NCBI GenBank assembly: GCA_946494015.1
Contig: CAMMBL010000003.1
Location: forward strand, 1 to 55,631
Source of the DNA: an uncultured Mycoplasmatota bacterium
GTDB lineage: Bacteria; Bacillota_I; Bacilli_A; RF39; UBA660
Reading direction: 5' to 3'
DNA: 55,631 nt
In this document: positions 3,271 through 16,901 of the stretch, in pieces
Numbering within the stretch: the stretch's first letter is position 1
Layout of the letters: each line of letters opens with the position of its first letter
Position numbers and translations under genes: made by a program
Notes under the pieces: model-generated
Database searches by the model: none
What the model was told of the DNA's origin: nothing
Seen by the model: the letters and a program-made list of their open reading frames with translations, nothing else

Positions 3271-3406
3271 TTTAATCGCATCCTTTCTTTATATTTTTAT
3301 AATAAAAAGTTTTTTAGCAAAGAACAACAAATTCGACAAAACTATATTTTCTTTGACAAATAAAAAAAATTGAGTATAATAAAGTCAGTTTTTAAGAGGT
3401 GTAATA

Positions 3407-4105
3407 ATGACTATAATTGAAAAAATAAATGAATGTTTAAATAATAAAGATCTACAAAAACTTTTAGAAGTTAAAGACTATATAAGTTTTTTTGCCAATG
3501 ACTGGTTTTATCTATTTGAAAAGAAGAAAAAAATATTAGAAAAGATGCTTGTTTTAACAGAGGATGGTAGTACTAATAGAATTCGTTTTAAAGGAAATAA
3601 TATTGCTTTTAGTTTAGGTAAAGATCCCATGGAAAAATTTTATTTAGACCATCTTTTACTAGGTGATATTAAAAATGAAGAATTCATATTTTCATTAAGA
3701 CATCAATATTTAGAAAATGATGAAGTTATTGCTGTAAAATTAGTAGATAATGGTATTTTACATACTTTTAATATTAGTAAAAATTCTTTAAGTATTGAAA
3801 AAACATATGCTAAAGAAATCGATTATACTAATTATAATAAGGATGAGGAAGTAACTTATGAAACACAAATTTTTAATTTAAAAAAAGAAAACAATGAAAT
3901 AAAGGTTTGGAATAATATTGATAATAAAGAACATGAACAAGATATTATGAAAGAATTTCAAATATTAGAAAATTTTTATCCAACAATAACTAGTTATATT
4001 AGTGGATATCTTCCATTCTTATCTGAATGTATTATTAATACTAAAAATATTCAAAAAGAAAAAACTAAAATCTATAAAATTAAAAGAAAAACAACAAACA
4101 ATTAG
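3407..4105 (+). CDS. Hypothetical protein (232 aa)
   Basis: Long ORF with GAGGTG RBS and TTGACA(3353)-16-TATAAT(3375) promoter; no recognised motif. Confidence 0.75.
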   Translation: MTIIEKINECLNNKDLQKLLEVKDYISFFANDWFYLFEKKKKILEKMLVLTEDGSTNRIRFKGNNIAFSLGKDPMEKFYLDHLLLGDIKNEEFIFSLRHQYLENDEVIAVKLVDNGILHTFNISKNSLSIEKTYAKEIDYTNYNKDEEVTYETQIFNLKKENNEIKVWNNIDNKEHEQDIMKEFQILENFYPTITSYISGYLPFLSECIINTKNIQKEKTKIYKIKRKTTNN

Positions 4106-10776: not shown

Positions 10777-11253
10777 TTAATTACTAGGAATTTTTAATAT
10801 TTGACCAACAGACAATAAATTAGTTGTTAAATTATTCAAAGATTTAATTGCATCTACTGTTGTATTAAATCTATTAGCTATACTCCATAAACTATCTCCA
10901 CTTTTAACCGTATAATTAACAGGAGTTATATTATTAGAAGATGGTATAAGTAAAACTTGACCTATAGAAAGTAAATTAGATGTTAAACTATTGGCATCTT
11001 TTAAAGCTGCAACTGTAACTCCAAATTGATTGGCAATACTCCATAGACTATCTCCAGACTTTACAGTATAAGTATTTGTAGTTATATTATCATTATCATT
11101 ATTATTATCTTCTTCTAAATCATCACTAGCACTAATACCAGGAATAATCAAAGACTGTCCTATGCTTAAAGTATCACTAATTAAGTCATTTGCATCCCTT
11201 ATTTCTTGAACTGTAATTCCAAATTTCCTAGCTATACTCCAAAGGTTATCTCC
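10777..11253 (-). pseudogene. 3' fragment of the interrupted amidase-LysM gene (rest of LysM4, LysM5, LysM6)
   Basis: The open frame extends 34 codons upstream of the tracked 11151 start as GDNLWSIARKFGITVQEIRDANDLISDTLSIGQSLIIP, beginning exactly at the attachment core. It is in frame with the 5' fragment. Confidence 0.93.
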
Positions 11254-11269
11254 AGATACATTTTTTATG
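11247..11269. repeat. Left attachment junction (core TATCTCC plus arm AGATACATTTTTTATG)
   Basis: Read directly; the arm is the 15/16 reverse complement of the arm at 15369-15384. Confidence 0.92.
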
Positions 11270-12830
11270 TAACATTTTTAAATGTAAATATAATATCTAT
11301 CGTTTTGTCCTGATAGATATAAATTTTTTCAACCAAATTTATTATCAATTCTCTAGTTGGATTTTCTAATGATAAAAATTCATTAATATATTTTTCTATC
11401 ATTTTATTATCTATTTTATTGGATTCACTATTTTCATTTTTAAGATTATCAATACTTGATTTATTATTTTCTATTTCATGCTTTAGATTTTCACTAACTC
11501 TTATATATTGTTCTTCATCAATAATACCCTTTAACATATTCATATAATTTTTATCCAAAGTTTCAGTTAAGTTATTATTTGCAAATTCTAAACTTTCTAT
11601 TTGCTTTTTTATTTTTAAAGTATTATCTATAGGGCTTATATTACCAATAGATTCTTTTACCTTATTTCTATCTAAATACTTTTTGCAAACTCCTTTTATA
11701 TTATCTAAAATAATCCTTTCTAGATTTTCATAATTGTTTGTATGAGTTGTGCAAACATGATATTTAGAATATGTTCTGTAATAATCACAAGTGGTATAAC
11801 TTCTACCTGTTTTATTTTGGTATCTAATTGTTATTCTGTGTTTACAATCTCCACAATATAAAAGCCCATCTAATAAATAAAATCTTTTTTTATCAGGTCT
11901 TTTAACATTTTTAGGTAGTAAAGTTTGTACATAATTAAATTTATCTCTATCAATAATTGCCTCATGGGTATTCTCAACTATAATATAGTCATTGGGGTTA
12001 TTTTTAACCGTCTTTTTAAGTTTATAATTAATCTTTTTAGTTTTACCTTGAACTGTATCTCCTACATATATCTGATTAGTAAGTATTGCTTTTACAGTAG
12101 TATCAACCCATATACCATATTCTTGGCTTATACAATTTGTATTTATGCACTTTGTATTCCATACATAATTATAATAAGATGCTGGAGTTTTAATTTTTCT
12201 TTCTGTAAGATATTGTGCTATATAATGGTAGGTATTACCTTTTAGTGCTAAATCAAATATCAATTTAACAGTATCTGCTTGTTCAACATTCACTACTAAA
12301 TGATTTTTATTTGTTGGATCTTTTATATAACCAAAAGGACATCTACCAGATACATATAATCCTTCTTTCATTCTAGAATGTAAACTTGTTTTAACTTTTT
12401 TAGAAATATCTTTAGCATACATATCATTCATTATTGCTTTAAAAGGTGCTATGTCATTATTAGTATTATCTATAAATGTGTCTATACCATCATTAATAGC
12501 AATATACCTAACATTTTTATTTGGAAAATACTTTTCTATTAATTCACCTGTACCAATATAATCTCTACCTAATCTAGACATGTCTTTGGTAATAATCATA
12601 TTGATTTTACCAAGTTCAATATCTTTCATCATTTTTTTGAATGCTGGTCTATCAAAATTAGTTCCTGAAAATCCATCATCAACATATTCATCTACTACTA
12701 TGTAATTATTTTCTTTAACATATTGTTTTAGTAAACTTCTTTGACTAATAACACTATCAGATTCTATTTTTCCATCATCTCTTGATAATCTTATATATAA
12801 TCCTACTTTAAAACTACTATTCCCAATCAT
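11265..12830 (-). CDS. Large serine recombinase (resolvase, recombinase and zinc-ribbon domains; SpoIVCA/TnpX-like)
   Basis: YIRLS catalytic Ser, YVDDGFSGTNFDRPAF, KDMSRLGRD, PFGY, HEAIID, CGDC...C...C zinc ribbon, 521 aa. Confidence 0.96.
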   Translation of the reverse strand: MIGNSSFKVGLYIRLSRDDGKIESDSVISQRSLLKQYVKENNYIVVDEYVDDGFSGTNFDRPAFKKMMKDIELGKINMIITKDMSRLGRDYIGTGELIEKYFPNKNVRYIAINDGIDTFIDNTNNDIAPFKAIMNDMYAKDISKKVKTSLHSRMKEGLYVSGRCPFGYIKDPTNKNHLVVNVEQADTVKLIFDLALKGNTYHYIAQYLTERKIKTPASYYNYVWNTKCINTNCISQEYGIWVDTTVKAILTNQIYVGDTVQGKTKKINYKLKKTVKNNPNDYIIVENTHEAIIDRDKFNYVQTLLPKNVKRPDKKRFYLLDGLLYCGDCKHRITIRYQNKTGRSYTTCDYYRTYSKYHVCTTHTNNYENLERIILDNIKGVCKKYLDRNKVKESIGNISPIDNTLKIKKQIESLEFANNNLTETLDKNYMNMLKGIIDEEQYIRVSENLKHEIENNKSSIDNLKNENSESNKIDNKMIEKYINEFLSLENPTRELIINLVEKIYIYQDKTIDIIFTFKNVT

Positions 12831-13009
12831 TAATTATTTCTCCTTTCCTTTTGGGAATAATGAGTATGATTGAATGGTAGCTCTAAATTTAAAATATTAC
12901 AAGTCTTATTAATCTTTTTTTGTAATTCAATTTTTAATACTTCAGTTATTGTTTCGTTTAAAGATTTTCCATTTTCTTTAAACTTTAAATTAACTTTGTA
13001 TTCAACCAT
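12830..13009 (-). CDS. 59-aa basic protein coupled to the recombinase (candidate recombination directionality factor)
   Basis: ATG at 13009 after GGAGG; stop overlaps the recombinase start; the ORF track gives a 65-aa version. Function is inferred from position only. Confidence 0.6.
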   Translation of the reverse strand: MVEYKVNLKFKENGKSLNETITEVLKIELQKKINKTCNILNLELPFNHTHYSQKERRNN

Positions 13010-13109
13010 AGAGTTTATTACCTCCATTTAAACCTATGGCATTAACTTTAATTTTAGTAATATTATTTGGTATGCATATTACATACTCAAAAATATTACT
13101 TAACTTCAT
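13002..13109 (-). CDS. Unannotated 35-aa ORF (MKLSNIFEYVICIPNNITKIKVNAIGLNGGNKLYG)
   Basis: GGAGG RBS; overlaps both neighbouring small ORFs. Confidence 0.35.
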   Translation of the reverse strand: MKLSNIFEYVICIPNNITKIKVNAIGLNGGNKLYG

Positions 13110-13140
13110 ATTCCTCCATTATATTTTTCATAAACATCAT
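13096..13140 (-). CDS. Unannotated 14-aa leader ORF (MMFMKNIMEEYEVK)
   Basis: AAGGAG RBS immediately downstream of a sigma-A-like promoter. Confidence 0.3.
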   Translation of the reverse strand: MMFMKNIMEEYEVK

Positions 13141-13154
13141 CTCCTTTTGCATGG

Positions 13155-13183
13155 ATGATACCTCTTTAAAATATAGGAGTCAA
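13155..13183 (-). promoter_or_regulatory. Sigma-A-like promoter for the small ORFs and recombinase
   Basis: TTGACT-17 nt-TATCAT on the minus strand. Confidence 0.65.
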
Positions 13184-13250
13184 GTTATATTTTTATTGTT
13201 AATTTTTTATATTATCCTAAAATTCAAAAAAATTAATTAATTACTGATTA

Positions 13251-13340
13251 GCAGGATAAGAAGTAGGCGCCTTGATCCTTATTTTTCTTTATAAAATAAG
13301 TAAAATAGTAGGTGCCATTCTTATTTTGCACTTGCAAAAT
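13251..13340 (-). other. Candidate origin of transfer (MOBP/RP4-like nic motif with repeats)
   Basis: Minus strand GCCTACTTC-T-TATCCTGC versus RP4 oriT GCCTACTTC-ACC-TATCCTG^C (recalled); flanked by two AGTAGGYGCC...CTTATTTT direct repeats and short inverted repeats. Confidence 0.5.
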
Positions 13341-13456
13341 TCATCCTATTTTATAGGTTTATATTAAGGTTAAATATAAACAATATAAAATTTTAAGACA
13401 ATAAAAAATCATCCTTTTTTCCAATTTTTATTAAAAATAGTAGGATGATTAAATTT

Positions 13457-14182
13457 TTATTTTTGTTTAATGGTTTTTAATTTTTCATCATAATAATTAA
13501 ACATCTTCTGAATTATATTATCACCAAATTCATTAATCGTTGAAAAATCTGACATTAAATTTTTAAATTGCTCAATACTTAATATTTCTGATAAATATCT
13601 TATAGATAGATAACTTAAATCATAGCCATTATAGTTATCATTAATGAAAGAATTTCCATGTTTTAAATTATTCATTTGAGGTATTACTTTGGTTTGCTCC
13701 CTTACCCTTAAATAAAAATCATTAAAAACACCTGAATCGTTCAGTGAATCTTTTTCTCCTGACATAAATTGTGCCATTCCTTCATCGTACCAAACTATCC
13801 TTTTTGAATAATCATTGTGCAATATATATTTCATATATAAAATATGAAATAATTCATGGCTAGCAGTATACAATCTTTTTAACTGGAATTTAGGATTCAC
13901 ACACGCATTAACCATTTCATTATCATAAGTCCCTGTAGCATATTCGGGTAACGAATCTCTTTCACCTCTTAAAGAATATATAAATTCTCTAAATTCTTCT
14001 ACATTATCAAAATAATTAACAACTATTGGTTCATCACTAGAAATACTAAAAAATAATTTATATTCTTCTATCTTTTTATTAAGTAAGGAAACAGTTGCTT
14101 GTGCTAAATTTTCTAGGCTCTCTGAATAATTTATTTCACACAAGTTTGTTTTTAAACTTTTTCTCATTTTCATCACCACCAC
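13457..14182 (-). CDS. Gluzincin-type zinc metallopeptidase (MA clan-like), no signal peptide evident
   Basis: SHELFH (HExxH) followed by WYDEGMAQF (third-ligand EG.A motif) and C-terminal Y..SYL.I.YL helix. Confidence 0.72.
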   Translation of the reverse strand: MVVMKMRKSLKTNLCEINYSESLENLAQATVSLLNKKIEEYKLFFSISSDEPIVVNYFDNVEEFREFIYSLRGERDSLPEYATGTYDNEMVNACVNPKFQLKRLYTASHELFHILYMKYILHNDYSKRIVWYDEGMAQFMSGEKDSLNDSGVFNDFYLRVREQTKVIPQMNNLKHGNSFINDNYNGYDLSYLSIRYLSEILSIEQFKNLMSDFSTINEFGDNIIQKMFNYYDEKLKTIKQK

Positions 14183-14184
14183 AA

Positions 14185-15264
14185 TTAACTTTCTAAATCT
14201 TTTTCAGATAAATTTAACATATTCCTAGCTCTCAATAAGAGTTGCTGATAAGTAAGAATATGTATATTGTGATAAGAAGAATTCAATATTCTTAAATATT
14301 TTTTTTCTTCATCACTTAATTCATTCTTAGTACCAATTAATATAATACCTCTTGGTCTTGCTATGACACAATCATTATCATCTTGATAACTATTATTTGA
14401 AGTCATTTTTTCTAATTCAAAAATATAATTTTGAGTTTGTGCAATTGCTTTTGTTAATTCACTAGATGAATAATAATTTTTATGATTCGTATCATAATGA
14501 AATAACTCCGCAGTTGGTAATTTAACTTCTATTATATCAATAAAATCCTCTAAATTTTTAGGAATACCATCTAATATATTTTTAGAATTAATTTTTTCTT
14601 CTTTTACAAAAGTACAATATTCACTCCCAAAAAGCCACAAATTTTTCTTTAAAAATTTTTGTATAAAAACTTCATTTTTAAATTTACCATTAATTATTTT
14701 TTCTAGATCTAAAATTGCTTGTTCTTTCATTTTAATATTTACTAATTTATAATAATCATCTATGCTATCAATATTATTTTCTATTAATTTAAGAAAATCA
14801 TTTTTTGAAATAGCTTTATTATAATTGTTATTAGAAGTTTGAATTTTATATGACAAATCATTATTACATAATTTTATTTCATCTAAAAATTGTTTTAAAA
14901 CGCTTATTGCGTGAGGGTTTAATGTTACTTCTTGTTCATTGTAGATATTGCCTTTAGATGTTCTTCTACATATATGTAAACCAGAAGTTTTATTACCTTC
15001 TTCTGTCTCAACAAGCCAACACCAATATTTCTGTTGTCCTGTTGGTGATTCGAATAATTTTATCTTTTCTGAAATTTTAAATTCAAGAGATTGCTGTCCA
15101 ATCTCATATTGTTCTTCTGTATATGTATTTCCGCAATCTGATATTGCCTCAGCCATTCTATAATTATCTCCATCCTCTTTATTTATTTTTTTACCTATGT
15201 ATATTTTTCCATCTTTTTTATTATCATCAAAATTCGGATTAAAATTATTCAAGCAAATCACCAC
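14185..15264 (-). CDS. Shedu (SduA/DUF4263)-like anti-phage nuclease
   Basis: E.FIQKFLKKNLWLFG.EY, D...D.IEVK.P (PD-(D/E)xK), ELTKAIAQ..NY, PRGIILIG, I.ILTY..LL.RA: the DUF4263 core, preceded by an unrecognised N-terminal domain. Confidence 0.75.
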   Translation of the reverse strand: MVICLNNFNPNFDDNKKDGKIYIGKKINKEDGDNYRMAEAISDCGNTYTEEQYEIGQQSLEFKISEKIKLFESPTGQQKYWCWLVETEEGNKTSGLHICRRTSKGNIYNEQEVTLNPHAISVLKQFLDEIKLCNNDLSYKIQTSNNNYNKAISKNDFLKLIENNIDSIDDYYKLVNIKMKEQAILDLEKIINGKFKNEVFIQKFLKKNLWLFGSEYCTFVKEEKINSKNILDGIPKNLEDFIDIIEVKLPTAELFHYDTNHKNYYSSSELTKAIAQTQNYIFELEKMTSNNSYQDDNDCVIARPRGIILIGTKNELSDEEKKYLRILNSSYHNIHILTYQQLLLRARNMLNLSEKDLES

Positions 15265-15298
15265 CCAAAGTTTTTAGTTATCTATAATTATATCATAT

Positions 15299-15327
15299 AA
15301 AAAGGCACTTTTCTTAAAAAAGCCCTT
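15299..15327 (-). terminator. Intrinsic terminator supplied by the element downstream of the truncated amidase
   Basis: Minus strand AAGGGCTTTT-ttaag-AAAAGTGCC-TTTTT hairpin plus U-tract, 27 nt after the new stop codon. Confidence 0.55.
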
Positions 15328-15353
15328 AAGATTCCTTGTGATTTTAAATATTT

Positions 15354-16538
15354 CTACTCATTATTCCCCATAAAAATTGTATCTCCTTTTTCTACTGTGT
15401 AATAAAAGACAGCACCATTATTATCTCCTTGATTATTATTTTCACCACTAACACCAGGAATAGTTAGAACTTGGCCTACACTAAGAGTATCAGTTACAAG
15501 ATTATTAGCATCTCTTATTTGTTGAACTGTAACTCCAAATTGATTAGCAATCTTCCATAAACTATCTCCTTTTACTACCGTATAAGTAGTAGAGGGCTGT
15601 GTTTGATTATTATCTTCATTGTCATTACCTGCACCAGGAATTATTAAAACTTGGCCGATACTAAGGACATCACTTGTCAAATTATTAGCTCTCCTTAAAT
15701 CATTAACACTAATACCATAACGACTTGCTATACTCCATAAACTATCTCCCTTTTGAACAGTATAAGTAGTAGATCCACCTATATTATTATCATTATTTCC
15801 ATTATTACCAGGTATTCTTAAAACTTGTCCTACACTAAGAAGATCAGTTGTTAAATTATTAGCATCTCTTAACTCTTGTACAGTAACTCCAAAGCGATTA
15901 GCAATACTCCAAAGACTATCTCCTTTTTTTACTGTATAAAAATTAGTACCACTTCCTTCTGGTGGAGTATAAGGAACTCCAGCATATTCAGCAATTGCTC
16001 TAACTACTGCTTCTACATAATTTAATAAATCATTTTGTAACTTAACTCTATCATTAGCATTATCAATAAAACCATACTCTACAAGTAATGATTGCATAGG
16101 AGAAGTTTCTCTAATAATATAATAATAATCTTTTGAAGGATCTTCTGGTAATCTTCTTTGATAATATTTACGCATAATTTGTCCTTCAGAACCAATTTCT
16201 TCTAAAATATTTTGAGCTAAAGTAGAAGAATTACGCAAAGCATAAATAACTTCAGCACCTTCTCCTCCTCCAGCATTTATATGATTAGAAATAAGTATAG
16301 CATCCCTACTTCCACCAAAAGCCTCATTAGCACGTCTAAGCCGTTCTTCTCTACTCAAATTTTCATCAAAATCTCTTGTTAAAACTGCTGGTATACCTAG
16401 TTCTTGTAATCTTTCATACATATATAAAGAAGCATCTAATGTAAAATTTTTCTCTTGCAAGCCACCACTAACAGCTCCAGGATCAGAACCTCCATGTCCC
16501 GCATCTACAACAACACCTGTTACTCTACGCTCATTCAT
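15354..16538 (-). CDS. N-acetylmuramoyl-L-alanine amidase (Amidase_3) with 3 LysM repeats; 5' part of the interrupted gene
   Basis: VVVDAGHGGSDPGA, EKNFTL, ISNHINAGGGEGAE, LLVEYGF; three complete LysM repeats, then YTVEKGD breaking into the element-derived tail TIFMGNNE. Start at ATG 16538 after GAGGTG. Confidence 0.93.
   Translation of the reverse strand: MNERRVTGVVVDAGHGGSDPGAVSGGLQEKNFTLDASLYMYERLQELGIPAVLTRDFDENLSREERLRRANEAFGGSRDAILISNHINAGGGEGAEVIYALRNSSTLAQNILEEIGSEGQIMRKYYQRRLPEDPSKDYYYIIRETSPMQSLLVEYGFIDNANDRVKLQNDLLNYVEAVVRAIAEYAGVPYTPPEGSGTNFYTVKKGDSLWSIANRFGVTVQELRDANNLTTDLLSVGQVLRIPGNNGNNDNNIGGSTTYTVQKGDSLWSIASRYGISVNDLRRANNLTSDVLSIGQVLIIPGAGNDNEDNNQTQPSTTYTVVKGDSLWKIANQFGVTVQQIRDANNLVTDTLSVGQVLTIPGVSGENNNQGDNNGAVFYYTVEKGDTIFMGNNE
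15369..15386. repeat. Right attachment junction (arm CATAAAAATTGTATCT plus CC; core TATCTCC 15380-15386)
   Basis: Read directly. Confidence 0.92.
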
Positions 16539-16901
16539 AATATTCACCTCTACATTAAAATATGTAAAAAGGCCTATTTTGCTACTATTATAAGCATTAA
16601 GCTTAATAAAACTAACTATATTTTAAAAAATAAAAGATTTTCTAATGATGAAATATTATAAAACCAAAATAAAATATTAACAACAACAAAACATAACTTA
16701 AAAAAATTTGATAGAGGTGTATTTTCTAAAATGGAAAACAATACCAATGCTAAATTAAATACACTAGTAAAAAACTTACAGGCAAAAAAAATAACCTTTT
16801 GCTTTTTAGCAATACGGCTATTTTTATATAACAAATTACTTAATAACTTTTTATAGTTTTTGATATTAAATTCAATAAACTTATAATTCTTTCTTATTAA
16901 T

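Follow-up and report, generated by a model that had tools for sequence, protein, structure and literature searches.

The stretch of DNA analysed here (the window) is 55,631 nucleotides long and comes from contig CAMMBL010000003.1 of assembly GCA_946494015.1, an uncultured Mycoplasmatota bacterium whose genome is about 25% G+C. Within it lies a 4,133-bp insertion that splits a gene for a cell-wall hydrolase with Amidase_3 and LysM domains. The N-terminal part of the hydrolase gene is found at 15354-16547, its remainder extends from 11262 to 10777, and the gene reads through once the element is removed. All genes of the element are on the minus strand. As listed in Table 1, two cargo genes are followed by an intergenic region and then by the operon of a large serine recombinase. 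An earlier note on this DNA, made from the sequence alone, had placed an RP4-like nick site of an origin of transfer (oriT) in the intergenic region and had described the element as relaxase-less. A scan of all four open reading frames (ORFs) indeed found no relaxase or conjugation gene, and the intergenic region contains a conserved, structured module that is probably an oriT.

Table 1. Features of the 4,133-bp element, in window coordinates (att, attachment site; ^ marks the predicted nick).
Feature	Position	Strand	Remarks
att core GGAGATA, recombinase end	11247..11253	-	
Large serine recombinase, 521 aa	11265..12830	-	Pfam Resolvase, Recombinase, Zn_ribbon_recom; relatives at 87%, 82% and 56% identity
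65-aa ORF overlapping the recombinase start	12830..13027	-	no Pfam match; conserved beside this recombinase type (cluster c27)
Short leader ORF, 11 codons (MKNIMEEYEVK)	13131-13096	-	
Sigma-70-like promoter of the recombinase operon, TTGACT-17-TATCAT, 3' of the module	13155..13183	-	10/12 matches; conserved in G025, G007 and G018
Conserved structured module, candidate oriT, ~133 nt	13239..13371	-	covariance model R1: 121 bits, E=2e-26
Candidate nick core TATCCTG^C (TATCCTGC)	13251..13258	-	predicted nick between 13252 and 13251
Long stem C, left arm AAGAATGGCACCT, right arm AGGCGCCTACTTCTT	13258..13322	-	encloses hairpin D; foot abuts the nick core
Hairpin D, inside stem C	13278-13300	-	
Hairpin B, ATTTTGC-AAGT-GCAAAAT	13323..13340	-	AAGT loop invariant, stem covaries
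Hairpin A, CCTAT-AAA-ATAGG	13345..13357	-	covariation at 3/5 pairs (alignment A2)
Terminator-like hairpin AATCATCCT...AGGATGATT plus T run, closing the cargo genes just 5' of the module	13401..13450	-	kept in sister elements (alignment A1)
Peptidase-MA/M9-like protein, 241 aa, cargo	13457..14182	-	weak Pfam matches below curated cut-offs
Shedu (SduA_C) defence nuclease, 359 aa, cargo	14185..15264	-	PF14082, 71 bits
att core GGAGATA, cargo end	15380..15386	-	

The module has a definite fold. Its family form is a hairpin A of CCTAC-AAA-GTAGG and a hairpin B of ATTTYGY-AAGT-RCRAAAT, followed by stem C with the enclosed hairpin D and by an unpaired tail that holds the candidate nick core. In an alignment of the window copy with 16 relatives (A2, 17 sequences), standard pairs fill 88.8% of the pair cells, compared to 39-52% in controls in which the partners were slid by 1-3 columns, and compensatory changes on both sides of the pair are found at 17 of the 31 pairs. 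Hairpin B, the best-conserved part of the module whatever the genomic context, is paired in 100% of its cells and has three pairs with compensatory changes. Stem C can be extended through AAGA/TCTT up to the base just 5' of ATCCTG, which places an inverted repeat (ending at TCTT) right 5' of the nick core. Because the two best-kept pairs of this extension are invariant, it is compatible with a stem yet has no support from covariation. Wobble pairs on the motif strand (33 G-T vs 17 A-C) show a modest excess that is too weak to tell which strand folds. Hairpins A and B are probable binding sites of auxiliary relaxosome proteins.

The letters of the module are much as the earlier note described them. 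The minus strand from 13268 to 13251 reads GCCTACTTCTTATCCTGC. The repeats AGTAGGCGCC (13262-13271) and AGTAGGTGCC (13307-13316) are present, each with a follow-on of the CTTATTTT type, as are the inverted repeats CTTATTTT/AAAATAAG at 13278-13300 and ATTTTGCA/TGCAAAAT at 13323-13340. The first pair had been read as direct repeats, and this part of the description did not stand, although the sequences themselves did: they are the two arms of stem C, which look like direct repeats because GGCGCC is itself a palindrome and its partner GGCACC/GGTGCC resembles a direct copy. The same positions in relatives hold plain inverted repeats, for example GGCACCAC/GTGGCGCC. The RP4 sequence that the note gave is also right, since a published RP4 oriT oligonucleotide is GGGCCTACTTCACCTATCCTGCCCGGCTGA (PMC3772185), and a nick at the position that it predicted would agree with the MOBP consensus. 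Beyond the 8-base core, however, the likeness to RP4, in the region recognised by its relaxase and TraJ, is coincidental. The adjoining GCCTACTTC is confined to this element (G000) and its closest sister (G025), and is replaced in relatives by GCCATCTTC, GTCAACATC, GTAAGTATC and others.

Sister elements were found in three other species of the genus. Their recombinases are 99%, 87% and 56% identical to that of the window, an alignable non-coding block is kept in all of them, and one carries other cargo in the same target gene. Within the block, TCTTATCCTG(Y)T is invariant while the flanks change; thus the conservation check proposed for the nick motif holds for the core and fails for the RP4-like 5' flank. 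A search by BLAST and then with a covariance model built from 17 copies gave 27 copies of the module in 21 of the 53 genomes of the genus. TATCCTG(C/T)T occurs in the same register in 19 of these, including divergent copies that score 34-58 bits. A second core variant, CTTATGCCC, is present in seven copies, and the remaining copy (G072) has a mutated core, TATGCTC.

A wider pattern scan, with one genome per species, added at least 119 further copies. Nearly all of them are in metagenome-assembled genomes (MAGs) from the gut that are labelled Bacilli, Tenericutes or Mollicutes, such as 'Mycoplasma sp. CAG:877'. The exact pattern was seen as well at L128, L136, L149, L155, L162 and L172, in MAGs labelled Actinomycetes, Muribaculaceae or Sphaerochaetaceae; these are either misbinned contigs of Bacilli or a sign of spread across phyla. 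When the module was compared by BLAST with 72,556 plasmids, the only match was one of 53 nt at 81% identity in Lactococcus plasmids, which we judged to be due to chance. It overlaps the 3' end of a hypothetical gene next to genes for bacteriocins, and no relaxase gene is near.

The context of the copies links the module to conjugation. In three genomes of the genus (G035, G067 and G031) it lies between genes of a type IV secretion system (T4SS) and a relaxase operon. The genes 5' of the module encode an M23 peptidase and a VirB4-like ATPase (803-846 aa); two or three small ORFs, one of them weakly ribbon-helix-helix-like, stand 3' of it and are followed by a relaxase of 435-454 aa (L058:12091-13398 in G035). 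Against PF03432 (MobA/VirD2-like; cut-off 24.6 bits) the linked relaxases score 27-30 bits, those of G067 and G031 scoring 27 bits; against MobL (PF18555) they score 39.5 bits (G035) and 17-27 bits (G067 and G031). These matches place the proteins in the MOBP/MOBL superfamily and do not separate its subfamilies.

For 80 loci from the wider scan the surrounding sequence was fetched. Seven have the same T4SS genes 5' of the module; one (L137) is the G035 copy, and the other six are therefore new and come from six further species. A homologous relaxase is found 3' of the module in three of the seven. Contigs of the other four stop 745-891 nt past the module, and in that distance they encode homologues of the auxiliary proteins of G035. 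Nine independent loci thus have the order T4SS, module, auxiliary genes and relaxase, which is complete in G035, G067, G031, L141 and L151 and runs up to the contig end in L118, L128, L138 and L155. The core variants follow the relaxase: TATCCTG occurs with the G035 type and CTTATGCCC with the relaxase of G067 and G031, which is 45% identical to the G035 type. Both variants are found in conjugative and in recombinase-only elements, and for variant 2 the same stem arms occur in both kinds of element. One covariance model matches the conjugative-element and the orphan copies alike.

Some further relaxase loci of the genus were considered. A weak BLAST match 5' of the MobL relaxase of G075 was rejected, as it lies within coding sequence and was missed by the covariance model; that MobL clade evidently uses another oriT. 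The MobL genes of G015 and G069 are at contig ends. In the G035 conjugative element an N6/N4 DNA methyltransferase is encoded right after the relaxase (L058:13654-14388), and the same methyltransferase cluster is represented among the cargo of the recombinase-only elements G007a, G025 and G071a. It may be an anti-restriction methylase common to helper and hitchers.

The arrangement seen in the window is the commoner one. In at least 49 of the 80 wider loci, as in the majority of copies from the genus, no relaxase was detectable, and a large serine recombinase is encoded on the same strand some 0.5-1 kb 3' of the module. Several recombinase subfamilies are involved, the arms of stem C exist in at least 45 variants, and the core is unchanged beside recombinases only 33-90% identical to that of the window. 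Orphan copies outnumber conjugative-element copies by about 7:1. Among 59 recombinase-linked copies with 31 distinct right arms, the right arm matched on average 6.75 of the 8 positions of its own left arm and 4.73 of 8 in the left arms of other copies; a match of at least seven positions was reached by 64% of the copies with their own left arm and by 6% with those of others. The arms therefore co-vary within relaxase-less copies, so that the structure is kept there by compensatory change, which argues against a decaying relic.

It is a speculative and rather doubtful idea that the module, the spacer of about 0.5 kb and the same-strand recombinase form a functional cassette of oriT plus leading integrase that is shuffled among sets of cargo, instead of being an accident of descent. 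If it were true, the hairpins could double as a single-strand priming or promoter device, with the integrase made at once, and the stem C variants would set which helper moves which hitcher. Two copies with core variant 2, L057 (G023:C3) and L064 (G034:C52), have a type I restriction-modification system (HsdR, HsdM, HsdS) inserted just 3' of the module. The insert precedes the HTH_36 genes (clusters c18 and c19), which in turn precede the recombinase in sister elements, and in one of the two loci it also holds a large N6-methyltransferase-type protein (all families of the insert were assigned by eye from the translations). The position of this cargo is what would be the leading region.

The element itself is mobile. 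It is present in chicken-gut metagenomes, where a contig of run X4 corresponds exactly to 11252-15386, with two substitutions and one gap (~99.9% identity), beyond which the flank is unrelated. Copies in runs X3 and X5 stand in a different LysM-type flank (ending in …GCTATRCTCCACAAAC), and the match breaks at 11247. Near-identical copies thus occupy three contexts or more, and the predicted ends are borne out by these breaks. When these ends are joined they form the palindrome AAAAATGTATCT-GG-AGATACAATTTTT, as expected of the attP of a serine integrase, and the predicted attP junction reads AAAAATGTATCTGGAGATACAATTTTT. The flanks fit an integrase that targets the codons of a GD-x-LWSIA (LysM) motif and is not strictly bound to it, one near-identical copy adjoining an unrelated gene start. 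Apparent circle or empty-site joints in the metagenome contigs were ambiguous and were not used: some had short sides that fell in LysM repeats, and others showed offsets of 8 and 59 nt and an insertion of 10 letters.

A conjugative element that carries the module shares this habitat. The G035-type element, too, comes from chicken gut, in the same studies that yielded the element of the window, and runs X2 and X13 hold both the window's element and a G035-type relaxase operon (~96-99% identity). The genome that carries the window has, on contig C9 (10374-26744; L067 and L068), a T4SS with a VirB11-like ATPase, a TrbL/VirB6-like protein, a VirB4-like ATPase, a SpoIID-domain protein and a VirD4-type coupling protein. 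This cluster has no recognisable relaxase and runs straight into the housekeeping genes SepF and DivIVA. Possibly it is a conjugation system, chromosomal or lacking a relaxase, that could serve hitchers. Another copy of the module, a divergent one (49 bits; core CATATCCTGTT), lies on contig C8 of the same genome at 3373-3512, minus strand (L110). It has a hairpin B of TTTCGGC-AAGT-GCCGAAA, a long stem TGCACCAAAAAAACG/CGTTTTTTTTTGGTGCA and the core CATATCCTG^TT, and it is placed 3' of a 414-aa serine recombinase, possibly truncated, and a 92-aa ORF. About 2 kb away, on the opposite strand, is a relaxase gene of the MOBV type (Mob_Pre, 97 bits).

Taken together, we consider it likely that the module is an orphan oriT, borrowed from conjugative elements, on a relaxase-less integrative mobilizable island of the kind termed 'iOriT'. 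The suggestion of the earlier note, an oriT with a MOBP-type core on an integrase and defence element that could be mobilised in trans, thus gains comparative support from the module beside relaxase operons at nine loci. The MOBP relaxase that the note named becomes a MobL/MOBP-like relaxase of uncultured gut Bacilli, of which the host's own genome has none. The anatomy, conservation, context and mobility are established by the comparisons above; for nicking, helper, transfer and order of entry we infer the following scheme. The recombinase would excise the element as a circle, and a MobL/MOBP-type HUH relaxase with ribbon-helix-helix helpers, supplied by a conjugative element that shares the cell and the oriT family, would bind the hairpins, cut after G13252 and remain on the 5' end at C13251. 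The relaxase-bound strand would be handed to the T4SS of the helper element, and the recombinase operon would be the first DNA into the recipient. Once the complementary strand had been made, the recombinase could insert the circle into a GD-x-LWSIA codon motif.

Several observations weigh against this interpretation. Covarying inverted repeats are equally expected for RNA and for sites of dimeric proteins, and the core is on the sense strand of the downstream operon. At least 61% of the wider copies precede a serine recombinase at a constant spacing, which could mean a function tied to the recombinase instead of to conjugation. The stem C arms of the window copy, GGCACCT/AGGCGCC, occur in none of the nine conjugative-element copies examined, the closest of these modules being 70% identical. 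No MobL, PF03432 or G035-type relaxase was found in the host's own genome, which is 94% complete in 78 contigs, and the family matches of the G067 and G031 relaxases are weak.

The module could also be explained in other ways. Covarying hairpins would fit an RNA, metatranscriptome contigs cross the module, and it is always 5' of, and co-stranded with, an operon, be it that of the recombinase or that of the auxiliary genes and relaxase. All this could speak for a cis-regulatory element or structured RNA (an antiterminator, leader, small RNA or array of operator palindromes) whose TATCCTG tail is unrelated to nicking. Such a role is nevertheless unlikely. The module is outside the 5' leader of the recombinase because a conserved sigma-70-like promoter intervenes, and an Rfam scan of 12700-13600 (E up to 10) matched no family, giving two chance matches far under the gathering scores. 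The RNA contigs, which cannot tell a read-through transcript from DNA carry-over, are long pieces with flanks and include no discrete small RNA; moreover, the invariant tail is identical to the nick consensus of just that relaxase superfamily whose genes adjoin it in nine loci. Quite unlikely, too, is a replication element, either a single-strand origin (sso) or priming site or a rolling-circle double-strand origin, acting instead of or besides a transfer nick site. The sso elements of rolling-circle plasmids and of ICEBs1 are strand-specific, dense in hairpins and about 130 nt long. The module resembles them in all of this, it heads the DNA that the recipient would receive first, and the relaxases of integrative and conjugative elements can initiate rolling-circle replication too. 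Its loops (AAA, AAGT and TTT), however, come without the CS-6/RSB motifs of the ssoA type, and its unpaired conserved tail is a relaxase nick consensus. A replication role would for the most part overlap with that of an oriT and would not replace it.

The recombinase elements might also be deletion derivatives of conjugative elements that carry a decaying, unused oriT. The lack of a cognate relaxase in the host's own genome, the lack of a helper with the same stem arms among the nine conjugative-element copies and the mutated core of G072 are what one would expect of a relic. We regard this as very unlikely, since the orphan copies retain their stems by compensatory changes, keep intact cores beside widely diverged recombinases and far exceed the conjugative-element copies in number, and since near-identical elements stand in different flanks. 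As for chance resemblance to an oriT in AT-rich intergenic DNA, the 8-mer YATCCTGY is found three times in the window with 3.34 expected, which is the chance level, and the GCCTACTTC part is unconserved. The extended pattern GCCTACTTC-N0-6-TATCCTG occurs once in the window, compared to 0.00 in 100 shuffles, and once in the whole 1.23-Mb genome. This 17-nt pattern was chosen post hoc, and therefore such statistics do not decide the matter by themselves. The case against chance comes from the core register, kept in 19 of the 27 homologous copies while the flanks vary; with more than 100 homologous copies that share a covarying fold and an invariant core, and with the module beside relaxase operons, coincidence is extremely improbable.

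Apart from its candidate oriT, the element has features of expression that deserve mention. The terminator-like hairpin that closes the cargo genes was missed by a consensus scan because its stem has too few G-C pairs. A promoter-like site just 5' of the module (13401-13373) was rejected for lack of conservation, and because shuffled sequence has such sites at least as often. Metatranscriptome contigs (runs X9 and X47-X49; 12700-13460) repeatedly break at 13120-13171, near the predicted promoter and start site, and their depth is 12-28 on the side of the cargo and module vs 6-9 on the recombinase side. The pattern suggests that transcripts of the cargo operon read through into the module and that the recombinase is little expressed. 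The stop context of the leader ORF, AAGTAATAT, is conserved in sister elements, and a 25-nt inverted repeat follows it at 13050-13106. Together they look like a device for attenuation or translational coupling ahead of the 65-aa ORF, a possible directionality factor, and of the recombinase.

The host lineage, abundant, uncultured gut Bacilli with small genomes, has no plasmids on record to our knowledge. If the module works as an oriT, it would explain how tiny recombinase islands spread between species of this lineage together with the defence genes that they carry. Shedu is the example here; relatives have methylases and type I restriction-modification systems. The module, if it works in this way, would represent a previously undescribed and widespread oriT family of more than 100 copies, in which a MOBP-type core is paired with MobL-like relaxases. 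The covarying stem variants would offer a natural system for studying the specificity of relaxosomes and the partitioning of hitchers among helpers. The iOriT idea would be extended from Proteobacteria and tyrosine integrases to Firmicute-type elements and serine integrases.

Comparison with known systems shows what the module shares and where it departs from them. The nick consensus of MOBP systems is (C/T)ATCCTG^(C/T), and the oriTs of RP4 and of H. pylori tfs4 have an inverted repeat immediately 5' of the nick core (PMC3772185). The module is like the MOBP oriTs (RP4/RK2 with TraI, the Ti borders with VirD2, H. pylori tfs4) in its TATCCTG^C core and in the adjoining 5' inverted repeat. Unlike in RP4, the flank GCCTACTTCACC is no feature of the family, and the hairpins differ in sequence and number; the relaxases linked to the module are MobL-like with weak PF03432 matches, and its core lies 5' of the relaxase operon, on the sense strand. 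The relaxosome module of pLS20, of the MOBL family, has the order oriT-aux1-aux2-rel (PMC5675868, PMC5313138). Conjugative-element copies of our module are ordered in the same way, with small auxiliary genes, one of them weakly ribbon-helix-helix-like, and a MobL relaxase after the oriT inside a conjugation cluster, but this order does not apply to the copy in the window, which has no relaxase. Nor is there any sequence similarity: pLS20 is nicked on the template strand, in DNA of 73% GC and after GAATCGGGGGCCGG, whereas the module has its MOBP-like core in AT-rich DNA on the sense strand.

In lifestyle the closest parallels are other hitchers. The iOriT elements, among them Vibrio mobilizable genomic islands such as MGIVflInd1, combine an integrase with an oriT that resembles those of conjugative elements and have neither relaxase nor mating-pore genes; they often outnumber their helpers, to which they are otherwise unrelated, and have defence genes near the oriT (Ares-Arroyo et al., bioRxiv 10.64898/2026.01.13.699239). 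The element of the window likewise has an integrase, att sites, a candidate oriT and defence cargo, and no relaxase or mating-pore genes. The iOriT survey, however, covered six proteobacterial species in which nearly all integrases were tyrosine integrases (serine <1%), whereas the hosts here are uncultured small-genome gut Bacilli, the recombinase is a large serine recombinase and the element is only 4.1 kb long. Non-conjugative S. aureus plasmids with oriT mimics of the pWBG749 family are relaxase-less replicons with copies of conjugative oriTs, of which there are several subtypes, each with its own mimics (PMC8136818). The two core variants and many stem C variants of the module are reminiscent of these subtypes, but the window's element is integrated and not a plasmid, and both the relaxase family and the oriT sequence are different. 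The lifestyle is known already; what is new is the host lineage, the serine integrase, the size of 4.1 kb and the putative oriT family.

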